The notes beneath the pieces were generated by a model that was not told the DNA's origin, made no database searches, and worked only from the letters and a program-made list of their open reading frames with translations. Shown in pieces: positions 4,937 to 47,518 of a DNA stretch of 64,000 nucleotides. The DNA is from Alphaproteobacteria bacterium (GTDB taxonomy: Bacteria > Pseudomonadota > Alphaproteobacteria > MPNO01). Location: contig OZ220750.1 in assembly GCA_965117055.1 (NCBI GenBank), positions 3,501,440 through 3,565,439 of the forward strand. The letters run 5' to 3'. The position numbers and the translations under genes are program-made. Each line of letters opens with the position of its first letter. Position 1 is the first letter of the stretch.

Positions 4937-5022
4937 CGGCGGCGACGGTGAAGACCGGCCGGGGCCGGCGCGAGCCGGTCGTCCGCCGCACGGATCGCGG
5001 CTGACGGGGCGTCCGCGCGGGC

Positions 5023-5556
5023 ATGCGCACGGAGGACGGTCCGCGGGCGTGGCAGATACTCCGGCGCCTCCCGGCCTACCGTGCGGCCTGGCGCCGGCGG
5101 CGGCCCCAGCCGGGCCTGCCCGAGCCCGCGCCCTTCCCGGTCCGGCTGCAGACCGCTTCCGACCTCGCCGCCGCGCGCTTCGGCATCCTCGCCTGGGAGG
5201 ACCCCTTCGCCGAGGACGGGCCGGCCTCGCCCTTCTGGCGCGTTGCGCCGGCATTGCCTGCGGCGGTCGGGCCGCGGGCGACGCCGCTGATCGGCGAAGC
5301 GGCAGCGGCCGGGCTCGCCGTCTCGGGCCTCAGGCTCGCCGACGGCAGCCTGGCGCTCAAGCTGGAGCGCGGCGACCGGGCGATTCAGCTGTCGGTCGGG
5401 CCGGGGACCGGCTTCGGGCCCGGCGACGGGGTGCTGGCATTGCACGACCTGCTGGAGGAGCCGCGGCTGTTCGTCGCCCGGCTGCGCGAGGCGCGGGCGC
5501 TTGCGGCCGGGCCGGCCCCTCCGGGGGGCGGGGGTCGGGGGATGCGGAATTGCTGA
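5023..5556 (+). CDS. DUF6499-like N-terminal part of a putative frameshift-fused ICE transcriptional activator (FseA-like)
   Basis: It carries a W..LRR.PAYRAAWRRR motif. The ORF ends at TGA 5554-5556, just after a G-rich tract at 5521-5541. The overlapping frame continues into a DUF2285-like C-terminus. Confidence 0.5.
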   Translation: MRTEDGPRAWQILRRLPAYRAAWRRRRPQPGLPEPAPFPVRLQTASDLAAARFGILAWEDPFAEDGPASPFWRVAPALPAAVGPRATPLIGEAAAAGLAVSGLRLADGSLALKLERGDRAIQLSVGPGTGFGPGDGVLALHDLLEEPRLFVARLREARALAAGPAPPGGGGRGMRNC

Positions 5557-5756
5557 AGGCGGTGGAGGGGCTGGCGGCGAAGAAGAAGCTGCCGCAGATC
5601 GCGCTCGACGTCTACGGAGCGGACAAGGTCGCGGACAGGGGGCTGCACTCCGACGGCGACCTGCGCGCCGCGGCGCGCCGTCTGGTCAGGAAGGCGCGCT
5701 TCCTGATGAAGGGCGGCTATCTCGACCTCGCCGCCGGGCGCCGCCCCCGCCTCTGA
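5538..5756 (+). CDS. DUF2285-like C-terminal part, in the -1 frame relative to 5023-5556
   Basis: The alternate frame reads ...GDAELLKAVEGLAAKKKLPQIALDVYGADKVADRGLHSDGDLRAAARRLVRKARFLMKGGYLDLAAGR and stops at 5756. Upstream in this frame there is only GC-rich, protein-unlike sequence, so the segment probably depends on the upstream ORF for translation. Confidence 0.45.
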   Translation, partial: GDAELLKAVEGLAAKKKLPQIALDVYGADKVADRGLHSDGDLRAAARRLVRKARFLMKGGYLDLAAGRRPRL

Positions 5757-6099
5757 CTCCGGCGCGCCGCGGCCGCCGGCGCGGTTCTCCCGTCGGGTCC
5801 TCCCGGAACGCCGCCGCGGGACGCGAGCCGCCCGCGCCGCTGCACACGCAGGATCTGTTCGACTCCGCGCCGTGCGGGACGACGACTCCGGACGCCATCT
5901 CCCGCCCCCGCCGGTCATGCGCCAGTCGCCGTCCGGCGGTGTGCGGCGGCGCGGGTCGCCGTCTGCGGGGGACGGTCTCGCGATTCTGAAATCGTCCCTC
6001 CCGGCGCCCTCCCTTCTCCGCTTCGATGGCCCCGATCGCGACCCGGCGCGGGCCGGGCGCAGGCGCCCCGCCCCGGGGCGGCGGAGAAAGGGAAACGCG
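5757..6099 (+). promoter_or_regulatory. Intergenic region upstream of the HTH gene and the tra operon, a likely promoter/operator
   Basis: It is a 340-bp non-coding gap between the regulator module and the first gene of the co-directional T4SS operon. Confidence 0.3.
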
Positions 6100-6321
6100 A
6101 TGACCGGGACGATCTATCTCAACACGCGCGAGGCGGCGGCCCATCTGGGACTGTCGACGCGCACGCTGGACCGCTACCGGGTGTCGGGCGACGGGCCGGT
6201 GTTCCTGAAGTTCGGCGGAAGGGTGCGCTATCTGCGCGAGGACCTGGACGACTGGGCCAGGACCAGGCGGCGCAAGTCGACTTCGGACGACGGCACGGCG
6301 CTCGACGGAGCGGGCCGGTGA
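6100..6321 (+). CDS. AlpA/MerR-like helix-turn-helix DNA-binding protein in the TraY/TraJ position
   Basis: It starts MTGTIYLNTREAAAHLGLSTRTLDRYRVSGDGPVFLKFGGRVRYLREDLDDWA, a typical excisionase/AlpA-family HTH. The ATG at 6100 is preceded by GGAGAAAGGGAAA, and the stop overlaps the next start (ATGA). Confidence 0.7.
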   Translation: MTGTIYLNTREAAAHLGLSTRTLDRYRVSGDGPVFLKFGGRVRYLREDLDDWARTRRRKSTSDDGTALDGAGR

Positions 6322-6635
6322 GGGTGCCGGCGATGCGAAGCGCGACCCTGCGCACGGCGGCCGTCCTGGCCCTCGGCGCGGCCGCCCTGACGGCCGGCGC
6401 GGATGCGGCGCTGGCGACCACCGACACCACCTTCGGCGATCCGCTGGACACGGTGGAAGGGATCGTCGGCGGCACCGGCGGCCAGCTCGCCGCGGCGCTC
6501 GCCGTGGGCGCCGCTTTGGTCGGCTCGGTGCTGCGCTTCAACGCCATGCAGCTCATGGGCGCGGTCGGCGTCGGCATCGCAGCCGGCGCCGGCACCGGCA
6601 TCGTCACCGGCCTGGTCGGCACGGCGATCGTCTGA
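6318..6635 (+). CDS. traA: Pilin-like small hydrophobic protein (TraA-like)
   Basis: It is 105 aa with a signal-like N-terminus followed by two Gly/Ala-rich hydrophobic segments. It is the first gene of an operon in F order. Confidence 0.6.
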   Translation: MRVPAMRSATLRTAAVLALGAAALTAGADAALATTDTTFGDPLDTVEGIVGGTGGQLAAALAVGAALVGSVLRFNAMQLMGAVGVGIAAGAGTGIVTGLVGTAIV

Positions 6636-6950: not shown

Positions 6951-7523
6951 ATGCGGCGCATCGAAATGGACTCCGCCTTCCGCCGGGTGCGGGACGTCCG
7001 CCTGGCGCTGGCCGGGCTGCTGGTGTTGTCGATGGTGGCGAACCTGGCGCTCACCATGAGCTTCGCCGGGCGCGAGACCGTCACCGTGCTGGTGCCGGCC
7101 ACGGCGGGACCCGCCTGGGAAATCGCCGGCGGCGGCGCCGGCACGGGGCTGGCCCGGGCGCGGTATCTCGAAGACATGGCGCGCACGGTGGCCGTCACGC
7201 TGCTGACGCTGACGCCCGAGAACGCGAGCCACGTCCGTCTCGCGTCGGCGCGGATGAGCCACGCGTCGGCGCGCGGTGCGATCGGCGCCTGGGTCGAGGC
7301 CGAGGCCGCCCGCCTGGCCGGGCGCGACATGGCGAGCGCCTTCTATCCGCAAGAGATCGAGGCCGATCCCGAACGGCTCCGCGTCGAGATCGCGGGCGAG
7401 CTGGTGACCTGGATCGGCCGCGAGGAGTCCTCCCGCGAGGACCGGCGCTACCGGCTCGCCTTCCGCATCGACGCGGGACGGATCGGGCTGCTGCGCTTCG
7501 AACAGATGGAGAGTGGAAAATGA
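6951..7523 (+). CDS. traE: TraE-like T4SS protein
   Basis: It is 190 aa (F TraE is 188 aa) with an N-terminal TM segment (LALAGLLVLSMVANLAL), in the expected position. Confidence 0.6.
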   Translation: MRRIEMDSAFRRVRDVRLALAGLLVLSMVANLALTMSFAGRETVTVLVPATAGPAWEIAGGGAGTGLARARYLEDMARTVAVTLLTLTPENASHVRLASARMSHASARGAIGAWVEAEAARLAGRDMASAFYPQEIEADPERLRVEIAGELVTWIGREESSREDRRYRLAFRIDAGRIGLLRFEQMESGK

Positions 7524-8308
7524 CACATACCCTCCAGAGGCACGCGCTGGCGGCGCTGGCTGCCGCACTCCTCGTCTGCATCGGCGCTATTGCGGCGCCG
7601 GGGTCCGCGCTGGCGATGCAGGTCCTCGACGCGACCGACCATGCCGAGCTGGCGGCGGAAATCTCCGCCACCAACGTGAACCGGATCGCATTGGCGGGCG
7701 ACCGGATCGCGAAGGTGGTGCGCGCGCCGGACGGATATGCGGTCGAGCACGACGCCACCTCGGGCGACCTCTATCTGCGGCCCCTGGCACCGGCCTCTTC
7801 CGGAGATGCGGCGGGCGAACCGGTCACGCTGTTCATCGGCACCGAGAAGGGGTTCACCTACCGGCTGACCCTGACCCCGGCCGCCAGGGACTCGGCGCAG
7901 ATCCTGATCCGCAACGGCGAGACCCTGCCGAACGTCGCGAAGCGCAGGATCGGCGCCAGGGACAGCGCGCGCATTGCGGCGCTGATGCGGCTGGTGCGCG
8001 CCGTTGCCCGGCGGGAGCCGCTGCCCGGCCACGAAATCCGGGCGGCCACCGGTCCCGAGCTCGTCGGATTGACTTTCATCGAGACCTGGCGGGGTCCGCG
8101 CTTCTCGGCGCATGTCCTGGAAGCGGACCGCGATGTGCCGGAAGCCGCGCGCCTCGCCGGGACCATCGAGGGGCTCCCCGGCGTCGGGCGCACCGCGGAC
8201 GGCGCCCGTCTCGCTGCGCTCTGGCTGGCGGCGCCCGGCACCGGCCCCTCGGGCGGCCGTCTCGCCGTGGCTGTCGTGGAAACCGCCCCGGCGGGAGAGC
8301 CGCGATGA
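7520..8308 (+). CDS. traK: TraK-like (VirB9/secretin-like) T4SS protein
   Basis: It is 262 aa with a signal peptide and overlaps its neighbours by 4 nt, in the expected position. Confidence 0.6.
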   Translation: MTHTLQRHALAALAAALLVCIGAIAAPGSALAMQVLDATDHAELAAEISATNVNRIALAGDRIAKVVRAPDGYAVEHDATSGDLYLRPLAPASSGDAAGEPVTLFIGTEKGFTYRLTLTPAARDSAQILIRNGETLPNVAKRRIGARDSARIAALMRLVRAVARREPLPGHEIRAATGPELVGLTFIETWRGPRFSAHVLEADRDVPEAARLAGTIEGLPGVGRTADGARLAALWLAAPGTGPSGGRLAVAVVETAPAGEPR

Positions 8309-9591
8309 GCGCGCGCTCGGACGGGCGCCCGGTCCGCGATCCCGGCGATGCCGATGCCGTGCGCCGGCGCCAGCTGCTGCTGTTCTCGGTCGTCGCGGCG
8401 GCGGTCCTGGTGGCGGTGGCCGCCTGGCTCGGCATGGGCGGCGGCAAGGAACGGGCGACCGAGGGCGGCATCGAGGCGGAGATCGCCGGGCCCGACGCGG
8501 CCGAGAAGGTGTGGACGCGGCGTTCCGAGGCAAGGCTCGGCGGGATCGAGACGCAGATCCGGGAACTGCGCCAGGAGGCGCGGACGCTCCGCGCCGACAA
8601 CGACCGGCTGCGCGCGAAGCTGGAGGGTGACGCCGCCAACGCGCGCGACGTCATCGACCGCCAGGCGGCGCTGATCGACGAGCTGCGGCGCGGCATGCAG
8701 CCGGCCTCCCCTTCCAGCCCCCCGTCCGGCACGGCGCCGGGTTCGGGGGACTATTTCCAGGCGCAGGGCAATGCCCCCTCGAACGGGGATCGATCGCAGC
8801 CGACCGCGATAGCGCCGGGCCGCATGATCGAAACCTTCGATCTGGAGGGATCGCCGCAATCTTCCGCCGCCGATCCCCGGACCGGTCCCGAACTGGTGGC
8901 CGATGCGGTGGCCAAGCCGGTCTCGTCCTGGCTGCCGGCGGGCGCCCATGCCGAGGCGGTGGTGCTGGCGGGCGTCGACGCCTCGGCCGGGGTCTCGTCC
9001 CAGGGCGATCCGCGCCCGGTGCTGATGCGCATAACGGGCCCCGCCTGGACCGCGGCGGAGGACGGCACGGCGATGCAGGTCGACGTCGACGGCTGCACGG
9101 TGACCGGCGCGGCCCATGGCGATCTCTCTTCCGAGAAAGTCTACGTCCGCTTCCGCACCATGACCTGCGCCGGGCCGGAGCCCGGCACCGTGATCGAGAC
9201 CGATGTCGCCGGCTTCGTCGCCGGCTCCGGCAAGACCGGGGTGCGCGGACCCGTCGTGAGCCGCGAGGGCGCGCTGGTCGAGAAGGCGTTCCTCGCCGGC
9301 GTGGTCTCCGGGCTCGGGCAGGGCGTGTCGCAGGCGTTCCAGCCCCAGGCGGTCGTGACGGGAACGGCCGCGGCCGTCGCCAACACCGGGCTCGGCGATA
9401 TCGGGCGCGCGGGCCTCGGCGCCGGCGCGTCGAGCGCGGGTCGGAAGGTCGCCGACTACATGATCCGCCGCGCCGAGCAGTACCAGCCGGTGGTCCAGCT
9501 CCAGGCCGGCACGAAGGTGACGCTGGTGTTTCTGGAAGGCGCGCGCATCGACGGCCGCGCGCCCGTCCGCACCGCGCAGAAAGGACAATGA
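8305..9591 (+). CDS. traB: TraB-like (VirB10-like) T4SS protein
   Basis: It is 428 aa with an N-terminal TM segment, a coiled-coil region (IRELRQEARTLRADNDRLRAKLEG), a Pro-rich linker and a C-terminal beta domain. Confidence 0.65.
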   Translation: MSARSDGRPVRDPGDADAVRRRQLLLFSVVAAAVLVAVAAWLGMGGGKERATEGGIEAEIAGPDAAEKVWTRRSEARLGGIETQIRELRQEARTLRADNDRLRAKLEGDAANARDVIDRQAALIDELRRGMQPASPSSPPSGTAPGSGDYFQAQGNAPSNGDRSQPTAIAPGRMIETFDLEGSPQSSAADPRTGPELVADAVAKPVSSWLPAGAHAEAVVLAGVDASAGVSSQGDPRPVLMRITGPAWTAAEDGTAMQVDVDGCTVTGAAHGDLSSEKVYVRFRTMTCAGPEPGTVIETDVAGFVAGSGKTGVRGPVVSREGALVEKAFLAGVVSGLGQGVSQAFQPQAVVTGTAAAVANTGLGDIGRAGLGAGASSAGRKVADYMIRRAEQYQPVVQLQAGTKVTLVFLEGARIDGRAPVRTAQKGQ

Positions 9592-34381: not shown

Positions 34382-34837
34382 CTACCGGCCGGTAGGCTCG
34401 TGGATGAGGATGGAGACCGCCTCGCAGGGCGCGAGGCGGGCGACCAGCAGGGAGCGGACGTCGGGCCAGGGCAGGCCGCCCAGGCCGCATCCGAGCGGCG
34501 GAACCGCGACGGAGCGGATGGTGCGGCGAGCGAGGATGCCGGCGAGATCGTCGAGGCCGGCGGCGATGTCCTCGATGCGGCTGCGGTCGCGCCAGTGGCG
34601 CTTGGTCGGGAAGTTGACGACGAAGCGCGGCAACCCGGCGCCGGCGTCGAAGACGAAGCAGCGCCCGGGCCGGACCTCCCGGCGCGCGCAGGCGTCCCGG
34701 TAGCCCTCGAAGTTGGCCGGGAAGCGGTGCCTGAACTGGAGGGCGAGGCCCTTGCCCATCACGCCGACGCAGTTGACGGGATTGACGAGGGCCTCGCAGC
34801 CGGAGGCGAAGAGGTCGCCCTGAACGAAACGGATCAT
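34382..34837 (-). CDS. Macro domain protein (ADP-ribose binding/processing)
   Basis: It starts MIRFVQGDLFASGCEALVNPVNCVGVMGKGLALQF..., with the Macro signature N..N..G.MG.G.A..F. It is 151 aa. Confidence 0.7.
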   Translation of the reverse strand: MIRFVQGDLFASGCEALVNPVNCVGVMGKGLALQFRHRFPANFEGYRDACARREVRPGRCFVFDAGAGLPRFVVNFPTKRHWRDRSRIEDIAAGLDDLAGILARRTIRSVAVPPLGCGLGGLPWPDVRSLLVARLAPCEAVSILIHEPTGR

Positions 34838-34887
34838 GACGCAGCTCCTGTCGAGAGAAGATCGAGACAAGACCGGCTCCGCCCGGC

Positions 34888-35472
34888 TCACGGGCGGCCG
34901 CCGGCGGGTGCGAGCGTCCGGAAGGTGGCCGAGAGGCGCGTCGCGGCCTGGCCGGCAGTGTCGGCGCGGTCGATGCCGTGCATCCACGCCGAGCGCGCGC
35001 GGCCCGCGAGGACGAGGAGCGAGCGGCGGGGGAGCACCGCCACCTCGTCGCCCGGCAGCCCGTCGCGGGCGTAGGGGCGCACCGAGCGCGGACGGAAGCG
35101 CATCGGCCAGTCGGCGGCGAGCGACAGGGAGGCCACCACGGGCCCGAAGTCCCGGTGGTCGGCGTGCATGCCGATGCCTTGGCCCGGTCGGTACTCGTTG
35201 ACGATGCACTGCACTGGAAGCGCCCCGCCGAAGTGTTCCCGCAGCCGGTCCGCCATCGCGTCAGCCCACCGCGGGAACGGCGTAGCCGGAACCGGGCGGC
35301 TGGCGCCCCGGTAGTCGTAGCGGTAGCCGTAGTGCTGCACGCGGCGACTGAGCTCGGTCATCCAGGGCGCCTGGGCGATGCGGAGCAGGATGCGCTCCTC
35401 CTCGGCCGGGGTGACGAAATCGGGGACGATGACGGCCCCCTGGGCGAAGACGCTCTCGGTGTCGCCGGTCAT
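34888..35472 (-). CDS. alkB: AlkB-like 2OG-Fe(II) dioxygenase (DNA/RNA dealkylation repair)
   Basis: It carries the HxD...H facial triad (MHADHRDF ... WMHGI) and R..S.T.R near the C-terminus. It is 194 aa. Confidence 0.8.
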   Translation of the reverse strand: MTGDTESVFAQGAVIVPDFVTPAEEERILLRIAQAPWMTELSRRVQHYGYRYDYRGASRPVPATPFPRWADAMADRLREHFGGALPVQCIVNEYRPGQGIGMHADHRDFGPVVASLSLAADWPMRFRPRSVRPYARDGLPGDEVAVLPRRSLLVLAGRARSAWMHGIDRADTAGQAATRLSATFRTLAPAGGRP

Positions 35473-35630
35473 GCTCTCTCTCCTCGCAAGTGCGAACGCC
35501 CCTTCCAGCGCTTCTCCCGAACTCCGGCGCCGGGATGGGGAAGAAAAGCTCCGGCCCGTCAGCAGAAAAAAGGGGACCGACGCCGAAGCGCCGGCCCCCG
35601 AGGCGGGAGGGAGGGACGATGACGGGCCGT

Positions 35631-36086
35631 TTAAAACGGGATTTCGTCATCCAGATCCGCGGGCGCCGAGGCCGGCACGGACCTGGTGTCGCCCGCCATG
35701 TCCGGGTCGGGCTGCATCTGCGAGCCGTTGCCGTTCGGCTTGTCGAGGAACTGCACCCGGCCGCCCGGGACCAGCAGGATCTCGGTCGAGAAGCGGTCGC
35801 CGTCCTCGCCGGGCTTCGACCAGCGCCGGGTCTGGAGCTTGCCGTCGACGTAGACCAGGCGGCCCTTGGTAGCGTGCTTCTCGAACATGTCGATCAGCCC
35901 GTCCTGGAAGGTGACGACCCGGTGCCACTCGGTCTTGTCGACCTTCTCGCCGGTCTGCCGGTTGATGTACGACTCGTCGGTCGCGATGCTCAGGTTGGCC
36001 ACGCGGCCGCCCGAGGTGAGGTGGTTGACGGTGACGTCGCCGCCGAGGCGGCCGATCAGCTGCACCTTGTTCAATCCGAATGCCAT
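35631..36086 (-). CDS. ssb: Single-stranded DNA-binding protein SSB
   Basis: It has an OB-fold N-terminus (LNKVQLIGRLGGD...TEWHRVVTF), a Gly-rich linker and the canonical acidic tail DLDDEIPF. Confidence 0.9.
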   Translation of the reverse strand: MAFGLNKVQLIGRLGGDVTVNHLTSGGRVANLSIATDESYINRQTGEKVDKTEWHRVVTFQDGLIDMFEKHATKGRLVYVDGKLQTRRWSKPGEDGDRFSTEILLVPGGRVQFLDKPNGNGSQMQPDPDMAGDTRSVPASAPADLDDEIPF

Positions 36087-37808: not shown

Positions 37809-38672
37809 TTATCGGCGCCGCTTCTTCCCCGGCCAGGGGAGGATGCCGTCCAGCTCGGCAAGGAGCGGGTCTTCGTCCTCTACCTCACGCCCTTCATGCT
37901 GTAGAGGAGGCACCTCTTCATCCTCGAACCAGAGCAGCGTGAGCGTCTGATCCCACGACTTTAGATATCGAGCTTCCTCCAAGACCGTGCCACCCCGGCG
38001 CCAATCGCTGAACCACACGTCGGCAGCTACTTCGTCCGGCCCTGTTTCCTTGCCGCCTGTACGTAGAGCGGCGGACAAGGTTTGTGGTGGAGTCTGCATT
38101 CGGGGCGGAATCCAGGCTCCCGCATCGCGCAGCGAATTCGACCGAGACGCGTATCGCACAACGCCCTTTTCGGAGAGAACGAAGGCGCATGGAGCATCCA
38201 TCACCGTCGCATAACGGGAACCCGTCGCGGTGGTCGATGCAATGAAACGACTCGCAAGCTCGTCGATTGCCATGAATCCGATCTGTTCGTCCCTTACCAA
38301 GGGCTCGAACAACTGCTTCGGCAGCAGCAACTCCGCCGCGAAAACGTCACAGAGAACCTCGTTCTTCGGGCGCCTGGCATAGCTCCACCATGGCATCGAG
38401 GAGTGGTCGGACGGCAGCCCCAAGACGATGTGTGCGATCTCGTGACAGGCGGTGAACCGCCTGCGCTCCTCGCTGTCCTTTTCGTTGACGCAGATAAAGT
38501 GCTTGCCCTTGTTCTCGAACGAGTAACCGGGCTCGTCGTCCGGTAGGTCCGGCTCGTGACGAATGACCCCGCCGATGTGCTTTGCATAAGCCCTGACGCA
38601 CGGTGGAAGTCCGGGAGATCCGGCTTCACGCACGAAGTTCCGAGCGCGGAGGACGACCGAGAATTCATCCAT
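37809..38672 (-). CDS. ImmA/IrrE-family (DUF955) metallopeptidase, CapP-like
   Basis: It carries the HEIAH zinc motif (TACHEIAHIVLG) and is 287 aa. It overlaps the XRE gene by 8 nt. Confidence 0.8.
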   Translation of the reverse strand: MDEFSVVLRARNFVREAGSPGLPPCVRAYAKHIGGVIRHEPDLPDDEPGYSFENKGKHFICVNEKDSEERRRFTACHEIAHIVLGLPSDHSSMPWWSYARRPKNEVLCDVFAAELLLPKQLFEPLVRDEQIGFMAIDELASRFIASTTATGSRYATVMDAPCAFVLSEKGVVRYASRSNSLRDAGAWIPPRMQTPPQTLSAALRTGGKETGPDEVAADVWFSDWRRGGTVLEEARYLKSWDQTLTLLWFEDEEVPPLQHEGREVEDEDPLLAELDGILPWPGKKRRR

Positions 38673-39057
38673 TGCCGTTCTCTTCCGACAGGATTCTGCG
38701 CACCCTGGCAAGCAGCTGCGCATAGTTGGGCCGGGCGCCGCCTCGGAACGCTGCGCCGGCTGCGGCCGCGAACTCGTCATAGGTCACGGTCGGATCGTTC
38801 AGCGCCTCGGCCACCAGGTCATCGGCGGTCTCGGGGTGGGCGGCAAGGAAGCGGAGCATTTCGGTCTCGCGTCGGTCGGCCTTGAGCGCGCGGATGAGCC
38901 TGACGAGCACATCCTCCGAGGGCGCCCCCTTTTCCCCCTGCTCGAGCCGATAGATATAGGCATGGTCCGTTTGAGCGAGTTGACCGAGCTCCCGCAGCGA
39001 CAGCCCCCGTCGCTCCCGCAGGAGCCGGAGTAAAAACCCCAGCCCGTTTTTTTTCAT
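38665..39057 (-). CDS. XRE-family helix-turn-helix repressor, ImmR/CapH-like
   Basis: The HTH reads LRLLRERRGLSLRELGQLAQTDHAYIYRLEQG. It is 130 aa and lies directly upstream of the ImmA gene. Confidence 0.8.
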   Translation of the reverse strand: MKKNGLGFLLRLLRERRGLSLRELGQLAQTDHAYIYRLEQGEKGAPSEDVLVRLIRALKADRRETEMLRFLAAHPETADDLVAEALNDPTVTYDEFAAAAGAAFRGGARPNYAQLLARVRRILSEENGNG

Positions 39058-39261: not shown

Positions 39262-39783
39262 ATGACTGCCACCGAACTCGAAGTCTTTCTTCACCTCCCC
39301 GGCAAGCGCCCGACCGTGGTGTCTGCCGAACCGACCGAGACTCTGCGCGCCCTCTTGTCCCGGGTCGACGTCGGGAACGACGCCGCCCATGACATCCTGG
39401 TCTTCGTCGGCGAATGCGATCACGCGCTCACGGAAGGCGAGGACTCGCACAAGCCGGTCGATCTCGACCTTACCCTGGCAGATCTCGAACTCGACAAGCT
39501 CCAGCATGTCCACTGCAGCCGCTGCCCGGAAATCGACACCTTCGTCCACTTCTCCGGGAAGGAGTTGAATCGGAAGTTCTCGCCAGCGACCACGGTCGAA
39601 GCGGCGACGCAGTGGGCTCGCGACAATCTACGCCTGGATGGGGCGGCGGCGTCGGAGTTCGTTCTGCAGCTCTCCGGCGCGCAGGACAAGCCGCGTTCGA
39701 GTCAGCACTTGGGCGAGCTCGTCCAGGGCAGCGAGTGCAAGCTGTCGTTCGAACTCGTCAAGGAGATGACGCCGCAAGGCTAG
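39262..39783 (+). CDS. Tandem ubiquitin-like (beta-grasp x2, multiubiquitin/BilA-like) protein ending in C-terminal Gly
   Basis: It is 173 aa with two ~85-aa halves of beta-grasp-like hydrophobic patterning. The C-terminus reads ...KEMTPQG-stop. An AGGAAA SD is present. Confidence 0.6.
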   Translation: MTATELEVFLHLPGKRPTVVSAEPTETLRALLSRVDVGNDAAHDILVFVGECDHALTEGEDSHKPVDLDLTLADLELDKLQHVHCSRCPEIDTFVHFSGKELNRKFSPATTVEAATQWARDNLRLDGAAASEFVLQLSGAQDKPRSSQHLGELVQGSECKLSFELVKEMTPQG

Positions 39784-39787
39784 TCGC

Positions 39788-40261
39788 ATGAAGTCACCGT
39801 CCCAGCGCCTATTCGAAGGCGACCTTCAGTCCGCGGAGTTCCGCAGCGGCGTCCTCAAGGAACACTGGGGCGTCGCTGCACTGGACTGGCCGCGAGTGAT
39901 CCTTTGGATCCGTGCGGCACCCAGAGCGGGAGCGCCGGACAGATACCATGTGGCCCTCGATCTTGAGGGATATCGCGCCGCAGCGCCGACGGGCACTTTC
40001 TGGGATCCTTCGACCGAGGCAATGCTCGACACGGCAAAGCGCCCGAAAGGCAAGGCGAACAGTCGCTTCGCGAAGGTTTTCCGAACAGACTGGAAGAAGG
40101 GCCGCGCCTTTTATCATCCATATGATCGTGTCGCTGCGGGGAGCCACGGTGAGTGGCGAACGCAGCAGCCGCACCTCGTCTGGACACCGGATCACACCAT
40201 CGTCGACTACCTGGAAGAGATCCGTTCCCTCCTGAATTCGGATGACTACGTTGGCCTCTGA
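39788..40261 (+). CDS. E2/UBC-like protein (cysteine-free variant)
   Basis: It is 157 aa and sits between the ubiquitin-like gene and the JAB/E1 genes. It has an HPY tripeptide where E2s carry HPN, followed by AAGSHG. The sequence contains no Cys at all. Confidence 0.5.
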   Translation: MKSPSQRLFEGDLQSAEFRSGVLKEHWGVAALDWPRVILWIRAAPRAGAPDRYHVALDLEGYRAAAPTGTFWDPSTEAMLDTAKRPKGKANSRFAKVFRTDWKKGRAFYHPYDRVAAGSHGEWRTQQPHLVWTPDHTIVDYLEEIRSLLNSDDYVGL

Positions 40262-40748
40262 ACCCGTTCCCGAAGAACTCTCCCTGTCCGTCTGGCTGTG
40301 GTTCCGTCTGCTCGGCGATTTGAGACGCCGTGGCGCGGGACGGCGCGAGAGCGGGGCGTTTCTGCTCGGTCGCAGCGATGGTCCACGGGGCCGCATAACG
40401 ACCTACCTGTGCTACGACGATCTCGATCCCGACGCCCTCCACTCCGGCGCCGTCACCTTTCATGCGAAGGGATACGCCGCTCTCTGGCAATTCTGCCGGG
40501 AGAAGGACCTGGAGATCTTGGCCGACGTGCATACCCATCCGGGCCGCTGGGTCGGGCAAAGTCCGATTGATCGGCGAAACCCGATGGTGCCGATAGTCCA
40601 CCACACGGCGCTTATCGTGCCTTGCTACGGGCGGGCCTCGCGCTGGTCGCTCAAGGGCGTCGGCGTCTACGAGTATCTCGGCGACTTCAAGTGGGCGACG
40701 CACAACCGTGCCGGCAAGCCGAAACGGGTCTCCCTCACCCTCTGGTGA
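40242..40748 (+). CDS. JAB/JAMM (MPN+) metallo-isopeptidase
   Basis: An upstream Glu (RESGAFLLG) and the JAMM motif HTHPGRWVGQSPID (H-x-H-x7-S-xx-D) are present. It is 168 aa. Confidence 0.75.
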   Translation: MTTLASEPVPEELSLSVWLWFRLLGDLRRRGAGRRESGAFLLGRSDGPRGRITTYLCYDDLDPDALHSGAVTFHAKGYAALWQFCREKDLEILADVHTHPGRWVGQSPIDRRNPMVPIVHHTALIVPCYGRASRWSLKGVGVYEYLGDFKWATHNRAGKPKRVSLTLW

Positions 40749-40753
40749 TAGGC

Positions 40754-42157
40754 ATGACGGACGAAAGGCCCAATCTCTCCCGGATATCGAAGCTGTTTGC
40801 CGACAGAGATTCAATGCCGACCTGGGACGGGCTCAGGAAACGGCAGCAATTCGGGGTGACGCTCGTTTGCGGTGGGGACGTGGCCGGTTCGTACATGCTG
40901 CAACTCTGCGTGCTCACAGCCGCGAAGATTGCCACGCGGTGCTTTCCCGGTGCGGTGCGTGTCGTACTGCCTGCACCGGACGACAGAGCAGCCTTGTTGC
41001 TCTGGCCGGAACTGAAGGGCCGCACTGCCTTCGGTGCTTTGCTCCGCCAAATCGTGGGCGACCAGAATGTCGTTGCCGACCTGGGCGGTCTGTCCGTCAG
41101 CAACGCGCTATTGTTTGGCGACGCGCCCGAGACCGCTGGCGGGTTGCGCGTCACCTTCGACGGATGGGTCGCGATGACGGGCCCGGCATCGCAGTTGGCC
41201 CGGCTGCAAGAGCGACCATACTGTTCGCTGGCTGCCGTTCTGGCGGGGGCACTGGGCGTTTCGGAGCTGTTCCTGTCGTTTGCCGATATCTCGATCCAAG
41301 CAACACGACGGGCGGTAGGGCTGTCGCTCTGGCGACCTGATCTCGATCCCGCCGATACCGATGCAATCGGTCCAGTTGTCGGGTGGTTGCCGGCCAATCT
41401 CTGGGTGCTGGGCCTCGGACACCTGGGCAACGCCTACCTGTGGGCGCTGGGGACGCTGCCCTACGCGACGCCAGGGAAGGCCCGGCTCTTCCTGAACGAC
41501 TTTGACTCGATAGAAGACGAGAATATCGAAACGGGGCTGCTCTTCACCGGCGCGGACATAGATCGTACCAAGGCGCGGACCTGTGCCGCATGGCTGGAAC
41601 GGCGCGGATTTCAGACCCGTTTGCTCGAACGTCGATTCGACAAGCACCTTCGCTGTCAGCGCGATGAACCAAGGCTCGCGCTATGCGGATTCGATTCCAA
41701 CCCTCCACGTCGCGAGCTGGATGAGGTGGACTTCGACCGGGTCATTGAGAGCGGTCTTGGCGGTACGTCCAACAACTTCGACACCATGAGCATCCACGCA
41801 CTACCGAACCCCCGTTGCGTTGCTGAGCTCTGGCCGGATCTCCCCGACGAAGAAGAGAAGATGCGCGAGGCCCACCAGGAGAGTGTTGCGCAAGACAACG
41901 AAGCGTACGTTCGCTCTGGACTGGACGCGTGTGGCCGGTTTGAGTTCGCCGGAAAATCGATCGCCGTACCCTTTGTGGGAGCGGCCGCAGGCTGTCTTGT
42001 CGTCGCGGAGGCGGTCCGCTTGTTCCACGACGGCCCAGCCTGTACGGACATCAAGCTGCGCCTGGGAACATTCGAGAAGCATTGCTTTCCGGCAAGTCGC
42101 TGGTACAGCCCGGAGGATACCGCCGTTCACAGCTTCACGGAGGCGCTGCAGCTGTAG
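40754..42157 (+). CDS. E1-like ThiF/MoeB-family adenylyltransferase
   Basis: It is 467 aa with a Rossmann motif (VLGLGHLGNAYLWAL), ThiF-like Arg/Asp motifs (TGADIDRTKA) and several Cys candidates (LCGFD, ACGRFE). Confidence 0.8.
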   Translation: MTDERPNLSRISKLFADRDSMPTWDGLRKRQQFGVTLVCGGDVAGSYMLQLCVLTAAKIATRCFPGAVRVVLPAPDDRAALLLWPELKGRTAFGALLRQIVGDQNVVADLGGLSVSNALLFGDAPETAGGLRVTFDGWVAMTGPASQLARLQERPYCSLAAVLAGALGVSELFLSFADISIQATRRAVGLSLWRPDLDPADTDAIGPVVGWLPANLWVLGLGHLGNAYLWALGTLPYATPGKARLFLNDFDSIEDENIETGLLFTGADIDRTKARTCAAWLERRGFQTRLLERRFDKHLRCQRDEPRLALCGFDSNPPRRELDEVDFDRVIESGLGGTSNNFDTMSIHALPNPRCVAELWPDLPDEEEKMREAHQESVAQDNEAYVRSGLDACGRFEFAGKSIAVPFVGAAAGCLVVAEAVRLFHDGPACTDIKLRLGTFEKHCFPASRWYSPEDTAVHSFTEALQL

Positions 42158-42796: not shown

Positions 42797-45700
42797 TCAG
42801 GCGGCGAGCGGCCAGCGGTCGAGGATCCGCTCCATGGCGCCGGCATTGGGCGCGAATATCCGGGCGCGGAACTGGACGATCTCCACCGTGCATCCCAGGC
42901 GCTTCAGCGCGTCCATGTCGGTGTCGGCCGGCCCCTCGATCTCGATGCGGTCGGCGCCCATCAGGCGGCGGCGCGCGAGCCGCCAGCCGTTGGCGAGCGC
43001 GAGCGCGTTGCCGCGTCCCATCACCGCCTCGAAGGCCTCCGCGCCGGTCATGGCGGGGCCGCCGCCGAGGCCGAAACTCTGGCGCACCGCCCGCACCTGC
43101 TCGGCGTCGAGCACGCGGCCGATGAGGGCGATGCCGTCGTCCGAGGTGAGCCGCCGGACCCGCATGTTCTCCTCCGGCAGGCGGTCCCAGACCGGCAGCA
43201 GCAGGCCGGTGGCGAGCCAGAAGCGCGAGTCCCGGTGCGACGGCAGGCCGGCGATCTCGGCGTCCCAGACGCGTCGCCATGCGGCCTCGTCGGCCCTGCG
43301 CCAGTTGGAGGCGTCGAGCTCGGCCCGCGCGATTGTCTCGGCCGTCGCTGGCCGGATCAGCCGGACCCGTTCGCGGACCCCGCCGTCGTCGAGCATGCGC
43401 GAGGTGGCCGGCAGGATGACGGCGGCGCGCTTGGAGCGGGCGTTCACGGCCAAGCGCGGCCTGCCGTCGGGGCCGGGGTCGCGTTCCCCGATCTCCAGCG
43501 CCGATTCCGCCGTGAGCGGCACCAGCCTGTCGCGGCGGACGATCTCGACCAGCTCGGTGGCCGCGCCGGTGCCGGGATGCTCGTAGAGCGTCTCCCGTCC
43601 GGCGACGATGAGAGAGTCCGCTGTGACCGTCTCGACCCCGACCTCGTAGCTGCCAGCCTCGATCGCCTGCTCGATGTTGGATGCGATACGTGCCTCCAGC
43701 TCGGCGAAGAGCTGGTTCTGCTCGGCGATGGGCAAGGCCAGCAGCCGGTTGAGGAACCGGGGCATGGGCGGCAGGTCCTCCTTGAGATTGCCCTCCCAGG
43801 TGAGCTTGAGGCCGGTGGCCTTCTCGAACCGCTCCAGGGTCCAGCCCTCGATGCTTCCCCGCCACAGCGCGCCGTAGAACTGGCGCAAGGCGGCTCTGGC
43901 GTAGACGCTCTCGAGGTTGTCGCTCTCGCGAAACAGCGCCGCGTCGCTGCCGCCCATGGCGGTCTGGCTGTCGCGCTGGCCCCGCGTGATTGCGCCGAGG
44001 CTATCCAGACGGCGCGCGATGGTGGCGATGAAGCGCCGCTCGCCCTTCACGTCGGTGGTCACGGGCCGGAACAGCGGCGCCGAGGCTTGGTGGGTCCGGT
44101 GGGTGCGGCCCAGCCCCTGGATCGCCTGGTCGGCGCGCCAGCCGGGCTCCAGCAGATAGTGGATGCGGCGTTCCGTGTTCCCGCAGGACAGGTCCGCGTG
44201 GTAGCTGCGCCCCGTGCCGCCGGCCATCGAGAACACCAGGATGCGCTTCTCGCCGTCCATGAACGAGGCGGTCTCGGCGAGGTTGGCGGAGGCCGGCCGC
44301 GAGCGCAGCGCCAGGCGTTCGCCCTTGGCGTCCGTGATCCTCAGCACCCGGCGCGACCGGCCCGTGACCTCCGCCACCGCCTCGTGCCCGAAATGCTGCA
44401 CGATCTGGTCGAGCGCGGTCGGCACCGGGGGCAATGCCGCGAGCTTCTCGATCAGTGCATCGCGCCGGTCCTCGGCCTCCTTGCAGATCACCGGGTTGCC
44501 GTCGCCATCCCTGGCGGGCCGGCTCAGCAGATTGCCGGCGTCGTCGGTGAAGGGTTCCTGCAACTGCACCGGGAAGGCGTGCATCAGGTAGGACAGGATC
44601 GCGTCCCGCGGCGTCAGGTCGATGTTGAGGTCGTCCCACTCGGATGCGGGAACGTCGGCGATCCGCCGTTCCATCAAGGCCTCGCCGGTGGAGACCAGCT
44701 GCACGACCGCCGACCGGCCGGCGGCGAGGTCGGCGTCGATCGCGCGGATGGTCGAGGGGCACTTCATGCCGGTCAGTAGATGGCCGAAGAACCTCTGTTT
44801 CGTCCCCTCGAACGCCGACAAGGCGGCCGCCTTGGCGTTCCTGTTCAGCGTGTCCTCGCCCTGGACGATGCCGGTCGCCTTCAGCGCCTCCTCGATGTTG
44901 GCGTGGATGACCTTGAAGGCGCCGGCATAGGCGTCGTAGATGCGCCGCTGCTCCGGGCTGAGCGGGTGCTCCAGGATGTCGACCTCGATCCCGTCATAAG
45001 CCAGCGCCCTCGCCTGGTAGAGCCCGAGGGCCTTCAGATCGCGGGCGACCACCTCCATCGCGGCGACGCCGCCGGCCTCCATGGCGACGACGAACTCGGT
45101 GCGCTTCTCGAACGGCGTCTCGCCGGCGGCCCACAAGCCGAGCCTGCCGGCATAGGCGAGGCCGGGAACGGTGGTGGCGCCGGTGGCGGACACATAGGCG
45201 ATGCGGGCGTCCGGCAGCGCGTTCTGGAGGCGCAGCCCCGCCCGGCCCTGCTGGGACGGCTTGGTCTCGCCGCGCTCCGACTTGGACCCGGCGGCGTTGG
45301 CCATGGCGTGCGCCTCGTCGAACACGATCACGCCCTCGAAGCCGTGGCGGTCCTCCTCGTCCAGCGAGCCGGCCAGCCATTCGACGATCTGCTCCAGCCG
45401 CGAGGGCCGGCCCTGGCGGGACGGCGAGCGCAGCGTGGCGTAGGTCGCGAACAGGATGCCTGCGTCGAGGGGGATCTCCATGCCCTGCCGGAAATTGCCG
45501 AGCGGGATGACGTCGCTCTCCAGCCCGCCGAGCGCGGTCCAGTCGCGGCGCGCGTCCTCCAGCAGCTTGTCGGACTGGGAGAGCCAGAGGGCACGTTTCC
45601 TCCCGCGCAGGCGGTTGTCGAGGATGATGGCGGCGACCTGCCTGCCCTTGCCGCAGCCGGTGCCGTCGCCCAGCATCCATCCCCGGCGGAAGCGCACCGG

Positions 45701-47296
45701 CTCCGACAGGGTCTCGCCTTCCTGGGTGACGAGGGAGGTATCGACCTCCTCCTCGTTTCCGTCATCGTCGAGCTTGCGGCGGTGGACGGTCTCCCACTGG
45801 GAGCCGATTCGGTATTCCGCCGCCAGGTGCCAGGAGTGCGCTTCGCCCGCGAGCACGACGCTCTCGAGCTGGGCGTCGGACAGCAGGCCGTCCGTGACGA
45901 TGCGCTCGGGCAGCATCGGCCTGTAGGCCGGCACGGGATGCGGCACGGCGGCCATGGCGGCGGACTGGACCAGCGGCGTCGGATGCTGGACGGCGCCCGG
46001 CACCCGCACCGCGCCCGGCCGCCATGGAGCGTAGGGGCCGGTGTCGCTGGTTGAGGAATCCGCTTCGTCGCCGGGCTCGACCGGGCCGCTCTCGACAGTG
46101 AGCTCGGAATCCGGCCCCCAGTCGTGGGACTGCCGCGTCTCGGGCGTGGATGCTGGCTTGGGGCCCCGGCGCTTCTCCGGCTTGGGCGTAACCGGCTTGC
46201 CGAACAGGTCGCGGGTGGGGCCGGACGGGGCAGGCGCGGGCGCGATCGGCTGCCTCTGCGGCACCTGCGCGATGACGGCATCGAGTAGCTCGGCGGCATC
46301 GGCGGCGCGTGCGGTGCCGTCCAGCTCGACGGCCGGTCCGTCGCCGCGCTCCAGCACGGTGAGGCGGGTGTCGAACCCGGTGCCGCGCCGTGCATAGGCG
46401 CGGCCGTCGATGGCCATGGTGAAGATGCAGCGGGCCGGGGGATCGAGGCGGCCGACGGCGTCGCCCAGGACGCAATGGGCCGAGGTGATCGTCACCAGCC
46501 GCCCGCCCGGCGGCAGCATCGAGGCGGCGGAGCGGACATGGCGCAGATCGGCATCGTGGCGGCTGCGGTCGACACCGGGCGTTGCCGAGAAGGGCGGGTT
46601 CATCAGCACGACAGTCGGCCGGACGTCGCGCAGCCGGTCGGCGATGGATTCGGCGTTGAAGGCGGTGACGACTGATCCGGGGAAGAGCTGCGTCAGCAAT
46701 CGGGCCCGGGTCTGGGCGTATTCGTTGAGATACAGCTCGCCGGTGGCGTCCGTGCCCAGCGCGCATTCCGCCATCACCGCCAGCATGCCGGTCCCGGCGG
46801 AGGGCTCCAGCACCACGTCGCCCGGCCGGATCGCGGCGGCCTGCAACGCGGCATAGGCGAGCGGCAGCGGGGTCGAGAACTGCTGGAGCCGGACCTGCTC
46901 CTCCGAGCGCCTGGTGTGGGAGGGCTCCAGCGCCGCGACCGCCTCCAGCATCGCCAGCATGCGGCGCGGCCCGTCCGTCCCGGCGCCGCAGGTACGGCGC
47001 ATGCCGCGGCCGTAGCGCTGCAGGAACAGCACGCAGGCGGCTTCGGCGGCCTCGTAGGCGTCCTTCCAGACCCAGCCGCCCCCGGTGTCGGACACACCGA
47101 ACGCCTCCGTCATGGCGTCCCGGAGGGTCGCGGCTTCGAGGGGCCGGCCGGCCTCCAGCACCGGCAGCAGGGCCCAGGCCGCAGCGAACAGGGCATCGCC
47201 CGGAGACGGGCGGGGTGGCGTTGCGGGCGGTTCGATTGCGTCGGTAGGAAGGGGCGGACGCGCGAGGGCGTCCGGCGCCGGGTTGGCGTCGAGCAT
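42797..47296 (-). CDS. N6-adenine DNA methyltransferase fused to an SNF2/strawberry-notch-like helicase (about 1500 aa)
   Basis: The N-terminal SAM-MTase has an FxGxG-like motif (LEPSAGTGMLA) and the catalytic MNPPFS motif. The central P-loop NTPase/helicase has GDGTGCGKGRQVAA and VIVFDEAHAM. The long C-terminus has MAGGTGRSYH. Confidence 0.85.
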   Translation of the reverse strand: MLDANPAPDALARPPLPTDAIEPPATPPRPSPGDALFAAAWALLPVLEAGRPLEAATLRDAMTEAFGVSDTGGGWVWKDAYEAAEAACVLFLQRYGRGMRRTCGAGTDGPRRMLAMLEAVAALEPSHTRRSEEQVRLQQFSTPLPLAYAALQAAAIRPGDVVLEPSAGTGMLAVMAECALGTDATGELYLNEYAQTRARLLTQLFPGSVVTAFNAESIADRLRDVRPTVVLMNPPFSATPGVDRSRHDADLRHVRSAASMLPPGGRLVTITSAHCVLGDAVGRLDPPARCIFTMAIDGRAYARRGTGFDTRLTVLERGDGPAVELDGTARAADAAELLDAVIAQVPQRQPIAPAPAPSGPTRDLFGKPVTPKPEKRRGPKPASTPETRQSHDWGPDSELTVESGPVEPGDEADSSTSDTGPYAPWRPGAVRVPGAVQHPTPLVQSAAMAAVPHPVPAYRPMLPERIVTDGLLSDAQLESVVLAGEAHSWHLAAEYRIGSQWETVHRRKLDDDGNEEEVDTSLVTQEGETLSEPVRFRRGWMLGDGTGCGKGRQVAAIILDNRLRGRKRALWLSQSDKLLEDARRDWTALGGLESDVIPLGNFRQGMEIPLDAGILFATYATLRSPSRQGRPSRLEQIVEWLAGSLDEEDRHGFEGVIVFDEAHAMANAAGSKSERGETKPSQQGRAGLRLQNALPDARIAYVSATGATTVPGLAYAGRLGLWAAGETPFEKRTEFVVAMEAGGVAAMEVVARDLKALGLYQARALAYDGIEVDILEHPLSPEQRRIYDAYAGAFKVIHANIEEALKATGIVQGEDTLNRNAKAAALSAFEGTKQRFFGHLLTGMKCPSTIRAIDADLAAGRSAVVQLVSTGEALMERRIADVPASEWDDLNIDLTPRDAILSYLMHAFPVQLQEPFTDDAGNLLSRPARDGDGNPVICKEAEDRRDALIEKLAALPPVPTALDQIVQHFGHEAVAEVTGRSRRVLRITDAKGERLALRSRPASANLAETASFMDGEKRILVFSMAGGTGRSYHADLSCGNTERRIHYLLEPGWRADQAIQGLGRTHRTHQASAPLFRPVTTDVKGERRFIATIARRLDSLGAITRGQRDSQTAMGGSDAALFRESDNLESVYARAALRQFYGALWRGSIEGWTLERFEKATGLKLTWEGNLKEDLPPMPRFLNRLLALPIAEQNQLFAELEARIASNIEQAIEAGSYEVGVETVTADSLIVAGRETLYEHPGTGAATELVEIVRRDRLVPLTAESALEIGERDPGPDGRPRLAVNARSKRAAVILPATSRMLDDGGVRERVRLIRPATAETIARAELDASNWRRADEAAWRRVWDAEIAGLPSHRDSRFWLATGLLLPVWDRLPEENMRVRRLTSDDGIALIGRVLDAEQVRAVRQSFGLGGGPAMTGAEAFEAVMGRGNALALANGWRLARRRLMGADRIEIEGPADTDMDALKRLGCTVEIVQFRARIFAPNAGAMERILDRWPLAA

Positions 47297-47518
47297 GGAC
47301 CGGTCTCCGTGCTGAAGGGCGGAAGCGGGCCGGCGGCGCGGCACGGAACCTCCCGCGCCTGCCCGCCGACCGCCCCCGGCCGGCTGACCGGACTCCCGCC
47401 GGCGCAACGCGCGCCCGGGAAACCATGCGCGGCCGCGGCCGGTGGATGCGTTCAGGAAGGTGTGGGGATGCCCAGAGGGGCGGCGTCTCTCAGGGCCGGC
47501 GCGGGATGTGCGGCGATG

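Follow-up and report, generated by a model that had tools for sequence, protein, structure and literature searches.

The 64,000-nucleotide (nt) stretch of contig OZ220750.1 analysed here, referred to as the window, contains a Bil (bacterial ISG15-like) operon whose second gene, bilB, encodes an E2-like protein without a single cysteine. Homologous Bil operons give phage defence (Millman et al. 2022, 10.1101/2022.05.11.491447; Hor et al., 10.1101/2023.09.04.556158), and the locus is identified from its sequence as an intact type I Bil anti-phage operon, BilA-BilB-BilC-BilD, regulated by a CapH/CapP pair. The combination found here, in which the E2-like protein has lost its cysteine and the E1 enzyme keeps its own, is widespread in the BilB family and apparently functional. 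The operon contains the following features, all on the plus strand.

39262..39783, + strand: BilA, ubiquitin-like protein (Ubl), 173 amino acids (aa); PADLOC BilA 2.3e-39, residues 26-194 of the long open reading frame (ORF)
39788..40261, + strand: BilB, UBC-fold E2-like protein, 157 aa, zero Cys; Pfam PF24702 5.7e-43, PADLOC BilB 9e-54, profile positions 3-155 of 159
40109..40156, + strand: BilB active-site stretch F108-W123, FYHPYDRVAAGSHGEW; column statistics, with family-invariant Y109, D113, R114, H120 and W123
40121..40123, + strand: BilB Tyr112 codon TAT, in the catalytic-Cys column; MAFFT with five validated BilBs and family alignments
40242..40748, + strand: BilC, JAB/JAMM peptidase, 168 aa; PADLOC BilC 4.1e-57, Pfam Prok-JAB 4.4e-4
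40754..42157, + strand: BilD, E1, 467 aa; PADLOC BilD 3.2e-131, Pfam ThiF 6e-5, alignment to the BilD proteins of Collimonas and P. caffeinilytica
41930..41932, + strand: BilD Cys393 codon TGT, aligned to Collimonas BilD C385; BilD alignment

The order Ubl, E2, JAB, E1 recurs in all 80 related loci from GTDB species genomes. BilA ends in ...EMTPQG directly before its stop codon, with the C-terminal Gly exposed without processing. BilC retains an intact JAMM motif (HTHPGRWVGQSPID, at residue 97) and the upstream Glu of ESGAF (residue 36), and BilD carries a GLGHLG adenylation loop together with a catalytic-Cys loop, LDAC393GRFEF. In type I Bil, BilA comprises two beta-grasp domains and either ends in Gly or is processed to it. 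The gene order, the matches of all four proteins to their Bil counterparts and the accompanying CapH/CapP pair place the locus in this type; the Gly end of BilA, the loop and Cys of BilD and the JAMM motif of BilC agree, and the only feature of the type lacking in the window is the catalytic Cys of BilB.

An earlier note on this DNA, made from the sequence alone, had described a clean 157-aa reading frame without any Cys, lying in the E2 slot of a Ubl/E2/JAB/E1 operon and overlapping the JAB gene. This description is borne out in full: the plus-strand translation of 39788-40261 contains zero Cys, the frame runs from an ATG located 4 nt past the bilA stop to a TGA and shares 20 nt with the JAB gene, and the assignment to the E2 slot follows from the PADLOC matches to BilA-D and from the UBC fold recognized by Foldseek. 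The same note had allowed for a frameshift. Against 120 homologs, 156-181 aa long and 60-94% identical, BilB can be aligned over its full length (100% coverage), and the motif FYHPYDR is present in 119 of the 121 sequences formed by the window BilB and these close homologs, the remaining two having FYHPFDR. With a full-length alignment and a nearly universal motif, both a frameshift and a read error can be excluded. The dN/dS ratio of bilB, calculated for the window gene against close relatives, is 0.10-0.23. A Cys-free protein of this size is unremarkable by chance; the neighbouring CapH-like repressor (130 aa) and single-stranded DNA-binding protein (SSB, 151 aa) have no Cys either, nor do 61 of the 120 close BilB homologs. 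The part beyond chance is the absence at the catalytic column, since a large clade, itself under purifying selection, is fixed for it.

The family to which BilB belongs, PF24702, is labelled DUF7665 in one Pfam copy and 'BilB-like' in precomputed annotations, and NCBIfam holds no BilA, BilB or BilC model. A phmmer search with the window BilB against PDB sequences gave no match even at E = 10, and the corresponding search with BilD matched ThiF only, weakly. An AlphaFold2 model of BilB, built with 26 homologs, reached a predicted local distance difference test score (pLDDT) of 83 and a predicted template modelling score (pTM) of 0.80. Its top Foldseek matches in the PDB are Ensifer aridi BilB chains 8tz0_D/C and 8tyz_C (probability 0.99-1.0, TM 0.47-0.58), followed by Ube2k, Ubc12, UbcH5c and UbcH7. 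BilB is therefore a UBC-fold E2 homolog.

The position of the catalytic Cys was located by a MAFFT alignment with the BilBs of Collimonas, Cupriavidus, P. caffeinilytica, Caulobacter and Thiomonas (Millman et al. 2022, 10.1101/2022.05.11.491447, Table S2). The window segment AFYHPY112DRVAAGSH120GEW falls unambiguously on NCLYIPC113DRISIQGH121TAW of Collimonas, which indicates that Tyr112 itself occupies the catalytic-Cys column. In the AlphaFold2 model, Tyr112 lies at the N-terminal end of a short helix (114-118), after a long flexible loop past beta4, and Cys138 of E. aridi BilB was described in that same helix/loop arrangement (Chambers et al., 10.1101/2023.09.26.559546). The equivalence of Tyr112 and Cys138 of type II rests on the alignment between the window and Collimonas together with the alignment between Collimonas and E. 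aridi made by Chambers et al., because a direct hhalign comparison of the family profile with the single E. aridi BilB covered 26 columns of the beta3-beta4 'PP' region only (probability 1.5%). Moreover, a conserved His beside the catalytic Cys was proposed to participate in catalysis, this residue being His151 in type II (Chambers et al., 10.1101/2023.09.26.559546), and His120 of the window BilB is its counterpart. The HPY tripeptide had been taken in the earlier note for an HPN-like motif preceding the Cys, a reading which the alignment overturns. In canonical E2s, HPN lies 7-10 residues before the catalytic Cys, whereas His110-Pro111-Tyr112 stands on the x-P-Cys columns themselves, with no Cys, and the column of His110 is occupied by Leu, Ala or Ile in Cys-type members.

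The loss of the Cys extends far beyond the window. Exhaustive searching of 1.84 billion cluster representatives with HMMER yielded 354 BilB relatives, and column 112 was counted in 148 diverse full-length members of the family. Tyr is found in 48 of them, Cys in 44, Phe in 17, Trp in 13, Leu in 8, Val in 6, Met in 5, Ile in 4, Thr in 2 and His in 1. In other words, Cys occupies the column in 30% of members and is absent from 104 of 148 (~70%). Changes between Cys and non-Cys number at least 21, a rough figure obtained by Fitch parsimony on a neighbour-joining tree from which column 112 was left out. The surrounding residues are conserved across all classes of column 112, namely Tyr109 (99%), Asp113 (93%), Arg114 (95%), His120 (98%) and Trp123 (97%).

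No replacement for the missing nucleophile is evident elsewhere in BilB. Among Cys-less members, no alternative column holds Cys in more than 20% of sequences (column 151 does so in 13%), nor is any column conserved as Ser, Thr or Lys. The conserved potential nucleophiles in this class are only Tyr62, Tyr109 and His120, with Tyr62 outside the active-site stretch. Tyr109 is equally conserved (98%) in Cys-type BilBs, so its conservation is independent of the identity of the nucleophile. Judging from these alignments, column 112 does not appear to be an obligatory nucleophile position in the BilB family.

A separate observation from the same family concerns the longer proteins P0122, P0125, P0132, P0171, P0177, P0211, P0219, P0247 and P0264, of 302-355 aa, in which the BilB domain is C-terminal. 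These are presumably natural BilA-BilB fusions that require cleavage by the JAB peptidase, like BubAB in the Bub system.

Evidence that operons of this kind work comes from the systems already assayed. Five Bil operons were scored as defending E. coli, with their protein sequences given in Table S2 (Millman et al. 2022, 10.1101/2022.05.11.491447). Column 112 is Cys in the BilBs of Collimonas and Cupriavidus, Tyr in that of P. caffeinilytica CF1 and Trp in those of Caulobacter Root343 and Thiomonas FB-6, which means that three of the five defence-proficient systems have a residue other than Cys. P. caffeinilytica CF1 (construct Ub12, defence observed) is the closest tested relative of the window operon, with BilA, BilB, BilC and BilD 43, 46, 47 and 45% identical. 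Its BilB likewise has FYHPYDR with Tyr on the Cys column, and its BilA ends in TPQG; unlike the window BilB, which has no Cys, it carries two C-terminal Cys (LNCEDYLGC), both in non-conserved columns. The window gene is therefore an ordinary member of a validated subgroup, the large FYHPYDR clade, of a known defence system. The catalytic Cys of BilB, for its part, does not define the type I Bil family, because it is missing from these three validated systems as well as from the 104 family members counted above.

Cys138/C113 of BilB was called 'highly conserved' across types I and II (Chambers et al., 10.1101/2023.09.26.559546), and a Cys-less BilB finds no mention in the searched full texts, which leave out published Nature papers. 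The earlier note had anticipated that, if active homologs also lacked the Cys, the protein would be a known variant resembling the ubiquitin E2 variants (UEVs). This expectation holds in large part, as three operons without Cys at the column gave defence, but the variant itself is undescribed in the searched papers.

Further operons bear on the hydroxyl group of Tyr112. The operon at locus L081 has four full-length genes whose products, BilA, BilB, BilC and BilD, are 86, 88, 93 and 85% identical to those of the window, with omega values of 0.13-0.38. Its BilB contains FYHPFDR, hence Phe112, has zero Cys and lies in a mobile-element context as in the window; its BilA ortholog is called at 173 aa and matches PF27055 BilA_UBL_2. 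A second intact Phe112 example is found at L082/L083, with 67% BilB identity to the window. Since such intact Phe112 operons exist, and since a third of the family, two systems with demonstrated defence among them, has Phe, Trp or an aliphatic residue there, an obligatory hydroxyl at 112 is unlikely and that of Tyr looks dispensable. Locus L011, also of the Phe112 type, was rejected as evidence; its BilC (4469-4916) is frameshifted directly after the HTHPGAWIGQSS motif. At L082/L083, a second pair of ThiF and Prok-E2_D genes (7323-8501, minus strand) lies about 1 kb downstream of the Phe-type Bil operon, on the opposite strand.

The other components of Cys-less operons remain those of a conjugation system. 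Type I BilD alignments were used for the E1, as pairwise MAFFT of the window BilD with E. aridi BilD is unreliable near the Cys loop. In these alignments, GLGHLG and LDAC393GRFEF of the window correspond to GLGNLG and IDAC385GLTQ of Collimonas, and mutation of Collimonas BilD C385 abolishes both the Ubl~E1 adduct and defence (Hor et al., 10.1101/2023.09.04.556158; Millman et al. 2022, 10.1101/2022.05.11.491447). The 'CG' Cys of the E1 is kept in 70 of the 75 alignable E1s from the 80 loci and is present in every E2 class, with counts of 36/41 for operons of the Tyr type, 7/7 for Phe, 4/4 for Trp and 23/23 for Cys. The E1s without it are truncated or visibly damaged copies. Similarly, among 57 operons of the Tyr, Phe and Trp types, 53 have a BilA with a terminal Gly and 53 an intact JAMM motif. 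The Cys loop of BilD differs with the type of E2, reading CGR in the Tyr type and CG[MV]T in the Cys type.

Two side observations concern these components. At L003 (E1 at about 4961-6368; BilB 84% identical to that of the window), the E1 Cys is replaced by Trp in LDEWGRFEF, one base from TGY, which may reflect an inactivated copy or an assembly error. In the Cys-type alphaproteobacterial loci L054-L080, BilA usually has 1-3 residues past the Gly (GAGA, GGDA) and the JAMM spacing differs, whereas in operons of the Tyr, Phe and Trp types BilA ends exactly in Gly. Pre-processing of the Ubl may thus be correlated with the type of E2.

Among the closest known systems is the type I BilABCD of Collimonas sp. 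OK412. This operon and that of the window share their gene order, the E1 Cys (C385 and C393), the adenylation loop (G219 in Collimonas) and the BilB frame Y-x-P-[C]-D-R-x5-H-xx-W, at 35% identity for BilB and 36% for BilD. They differ in that Collimonas BilB has Cys113 and Ile111 where the window BilB has Tyr112 and His110. The type II Bil of E. aridi (CEHH/6C; 8tz0/8tyz) is the best structural match and shares the long flexible loop that joins beta4 to the active site as well as His151, equivalent to His120. Unlike in the window, however, its catalytic Cys138 is required for conjugation and its E1 has a Zn site, absent here; by phmmer, the sequence similarity between the two is undetectable.

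The Bub system (6E/DUF6527) resembles the window operon in having an E2-fold protein without catalytic Cys, a frequent association with CapH/CapP and a Ubl with C-terminal Gly. The differences are nevertheless considerable. BubB has an invariant Ser with His/Asp, or Lys/His, whereas Ser119 is not conserved here; the Bub E1 works with a Tyr of the crossover loop and has no Cys, whereas the E1 of the window retains its own; and Bub has fused genes and the serine protease BubE, both absent here. Searches of PADLOC and Pfam gave no Bub match for the window proteins. A Bub-type identity is ruled out by the lack of an invariant Ser, the retained E1 Cys and the absence of BubE or fusion genes. The Ser of the SHG tripeptide, put forward in the earlier note as a possible nucleophile, falls with the Bub-like Ser/His pair: at residue 119, 54 of the 121 close sequences have Gly and 53 have Ser, and no Ser column is conserved.

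Eukaryotic UEVs, such as Mms2/Uev1a and TSG101, have a UBC fold without the catalytic Cys and position their partners non-covalently. They have lost the active-site motifs and work beside an active E2 (Ubc13), whereas the active-site residues of the window BilB are near-invariant and no second E2 is found among the ORFs of the operon. The retained active-site residues and the lack of a partner E2 speak against a classical UEV. In archaeal SAMP/UbaA and Thermus TtuB/TtuC, conjugation proceeds from an E1-like enzyme and involves no E2 thioester. These systems have no E2-fold partner, in contrast to the Bil operon, in which the E2-fold protein is strictly conserved.

Among the mechanisms considered, BilB is read foremost as a non-covalent, E3- or UEV-like catalyst and target adaptor that would pass the Ubl from its thioester on the E1 directly to a lysine of the target, a reading judged to have about an even chance of being right. 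The earlier note had suggested a UEV-like adaptor with direct transfer from the E1; that idea is plausible and survives as the favoured one. In this mechanism, BilD would adenylate the terminal Gly of BilA and form a BilD(Cys393)~BilA thioester, which the mobile Cys domain of BilD would dock into the active-site cleft of BilB, as in type II Bil. BilB would hold the target and catalyse direct aminolysis by a target lysine, the Ubl never being covalently attached to BilB. His120, Asp113, Arg114 and Tyr109 would position the thioester and activate the lysine, and the bulky residue at 112 (Tyr, Phe, Trp or Leu) would pack against the thioester. Several published observations fit this picture. A Ubl~E2 thioester was undetected even for the Cys-type Collimonas BilB (Hor et al., 10.1101/2023.09.04.556158), which is consistent with an adaptor; the type II Bil structure places the E1 Cys within some 2 A of the E2 Cys position (Chambers et al., 10.1101/2023.09.26.559546); and direct recognition of the target by BilB, also consistent with an adaptor, was proposed in both of these studies.

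Other points weigh against an adaptor. The C113A mutation of Collimonas BilB abolishes defence (Hor et al., 10.1101/2023.09.04.556158), and the residue is thus of consequence in Cys-type members, an argument tempered by the fact that Ala does not occur naturally at column 112 in the 148 members. Defence by the Tyr- and Trp-type operons is known at the level of the whole operon only, and the function of the Phe112 operon at L081 is read solely from its intactness and from purifying selection. The loop 101-112, leading into the active site, has a pLDDT below 50 in the AlphaFold2 model. Moreover, Tyr is the commonest non-Cys state and is accompanied by His110 in 36 of the 48 Tyr-type members, a pattern that would fit an activated Tyr nucleophile too. 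Such a nucleophile is the core of the main rival, an oxyester relay, in which a Tyr of BilB, either Tyr112 activated by His110 or His120, or else Tyr109, would attack the BilD~BilA thioester and carry BilA as an aryl ester before its transfer to lysine. A precedent is found in Bub, where oxyesters form on Tyr370 of the E1 and on Ser333/His335 of the E2 (10.1101/2024.11.21.623953). Tyr112 lies exactly on the Cys column, and within the active-site stretch no potential nucleophile besides Tyr109 and His120 is conserved in the Cys-less class. What makes this relay unlikely is that 53 of the 148 members have Phe, Trp, Leu, Val, Met or Ile in column 112, among them the Caulobacter and Thiomonas systems (Trp), both of which give defence, and that the intact L081 operon, 85-93% identical to the window, has Phe112. 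The equal conservation of Tyr109 in Cys-type BilBs points to a structural or aminolysis role rather than to a replacement nucleophile, and, unlike in Bub, the catalytic Cys of the E1 is kept and no BubE/DUF6527 gene is present.

The missing Cys might also be compensated outside BilB, for instance by C39, C63, C157 or C277 of BilD, which would permit an intramolecular Cys-to-Cys relay within the E1 with BilB as a scaffold. These four cysteines are present in 31-39 of the 41 Tyr-type operons and in 0 of the 23 Cys-type operons, and the BilD of P. caffeinilytica also has C63 and C157. In the Phe-, Trp- and Cys-type clades, however, these columns are filled by Val, Ala, Ile, Met or Phe, as is typical of buried positions, and most Phe and Trp types lack these cysteines too. 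The pattern is the one expected from the shared ancestry of one clade, and the sites appear to belong to the N-terminal inactive adenylation-like region and to the Rossmann core, outside the mobile Cys domain. A compensating relay is accordingly held to be improbable, and the cysteines may instead mark buried positions or a clade-specific site. It is very improbable that His120 forms a transient acyl-imidazole with BilA. This residue is 98% conserved and matches the His beside the catalytic Cys in Chambers et al., but Cys-type BilBs, which do have a Cys nucleophile, keep it equally, and a role as general base explains its conservation more simply. We know of no precedent for an acyl-imidazole His among E2-fold proteins. 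That bilB is a dead or decaying E2, a pseudoenzyme, or the product of a sequencing or frameshift artefact would account for the missing canonical nucleophile, and some related loci are indeed damaged, as seen in the BilC frameshift of L011 and the Trp at the E1 Cys of L003. This is extremely improbable in view of the full-length alignment to 120 homologs around an invariant motif, the low dN/dS ratio of bilB, the four intact genes of the window, the retention of the BilA Gly, the JAMM motif and the E1 Cys in most Cys-less operons, and the phage defence given by three operons of the Cys-less type.

Returning to the adaptor mechanism and its reach, most type I Bil systems may use an E2-fold protein that is never a carrier of the Ubl, in an E3-like, two-enzyme cascade with a single thioester, the Cys of Collimonas being an interchangeable accessory; alternatively, the invariant Tyr109/His120 pair may take the Ubl from the E1 thioester to an E2 aryl ester. 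This broader picture is held with middling confidence. Bil systems are portrayed as the bacterial equivalent of the thioester cascade that runs from E1 to E2 in eukaryotes, and about 70% of the BilB family is without the E2 Cys. If Cys-less systems conjugate, no E2 thioester is involved, and the assumed E1-to-E2 thioester relay is inapplicable to them. The question bears on how the E2 fold catalyses aminolysis and on the divergence of E2, UEV and E3-like functions, and the mechanism is open to direct test with the existing Bil constructs of P. caffeinilytica, Caulobacter and Thiomonas.

The operon is flanked by a divergent regulatory pair and by genes of an ICE-like (integrative and conjugative element) or plasmid-like character (34382-36086 and 42797-47407, both on the minus strand). 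The flanking features, all on the minus strand, are the following.

34382-34822, − strand: macro-domain protein
34888-35472, − strand: 2-oxoglutarate (2OG)-Fe(II) oxygenase
35631-36086, − strand: SSB, 151 aa
36552-37088, − strand: ORF of 178 aa (MATLIYAGIGARATP...), between SSB and the regulators; no match in Pfam
37809..38780, − strand: CapP-like IrrE/M78 metallopeptidase regulator; Pfam Peptidase_M78 6.4e-14, PADLOC capP 5e-56 over residues 45-286
38665..39057, − strand: CapH-like XRE-family helix-turn-helix (HTH) repressor, 130 aa, divergent from the Bil operon; Pfam HTH_31 7.8e-16, PADLOC capH 1.2e-13
42797-47407, − strand: strawberry-notch-type helicase, 1536 aa, with AAA_34 and Helicase_C_4, convergent on bilD

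The true start of CapP is probably the Met at 38672, which is internal to the annotated ORF and overlaps the CapH stop. The position of the CapH/CapP pair, divergent from the Bil operon, suggests that expression is induced by DNA damage or by phage. Between bilD and the convergent helicase gene, the ORF list of the window contains no further ORF. The Bil operon at L081 lies in the same frame of SSB and helicase genes, with a HicB-like gene in place of CapH/CapP.

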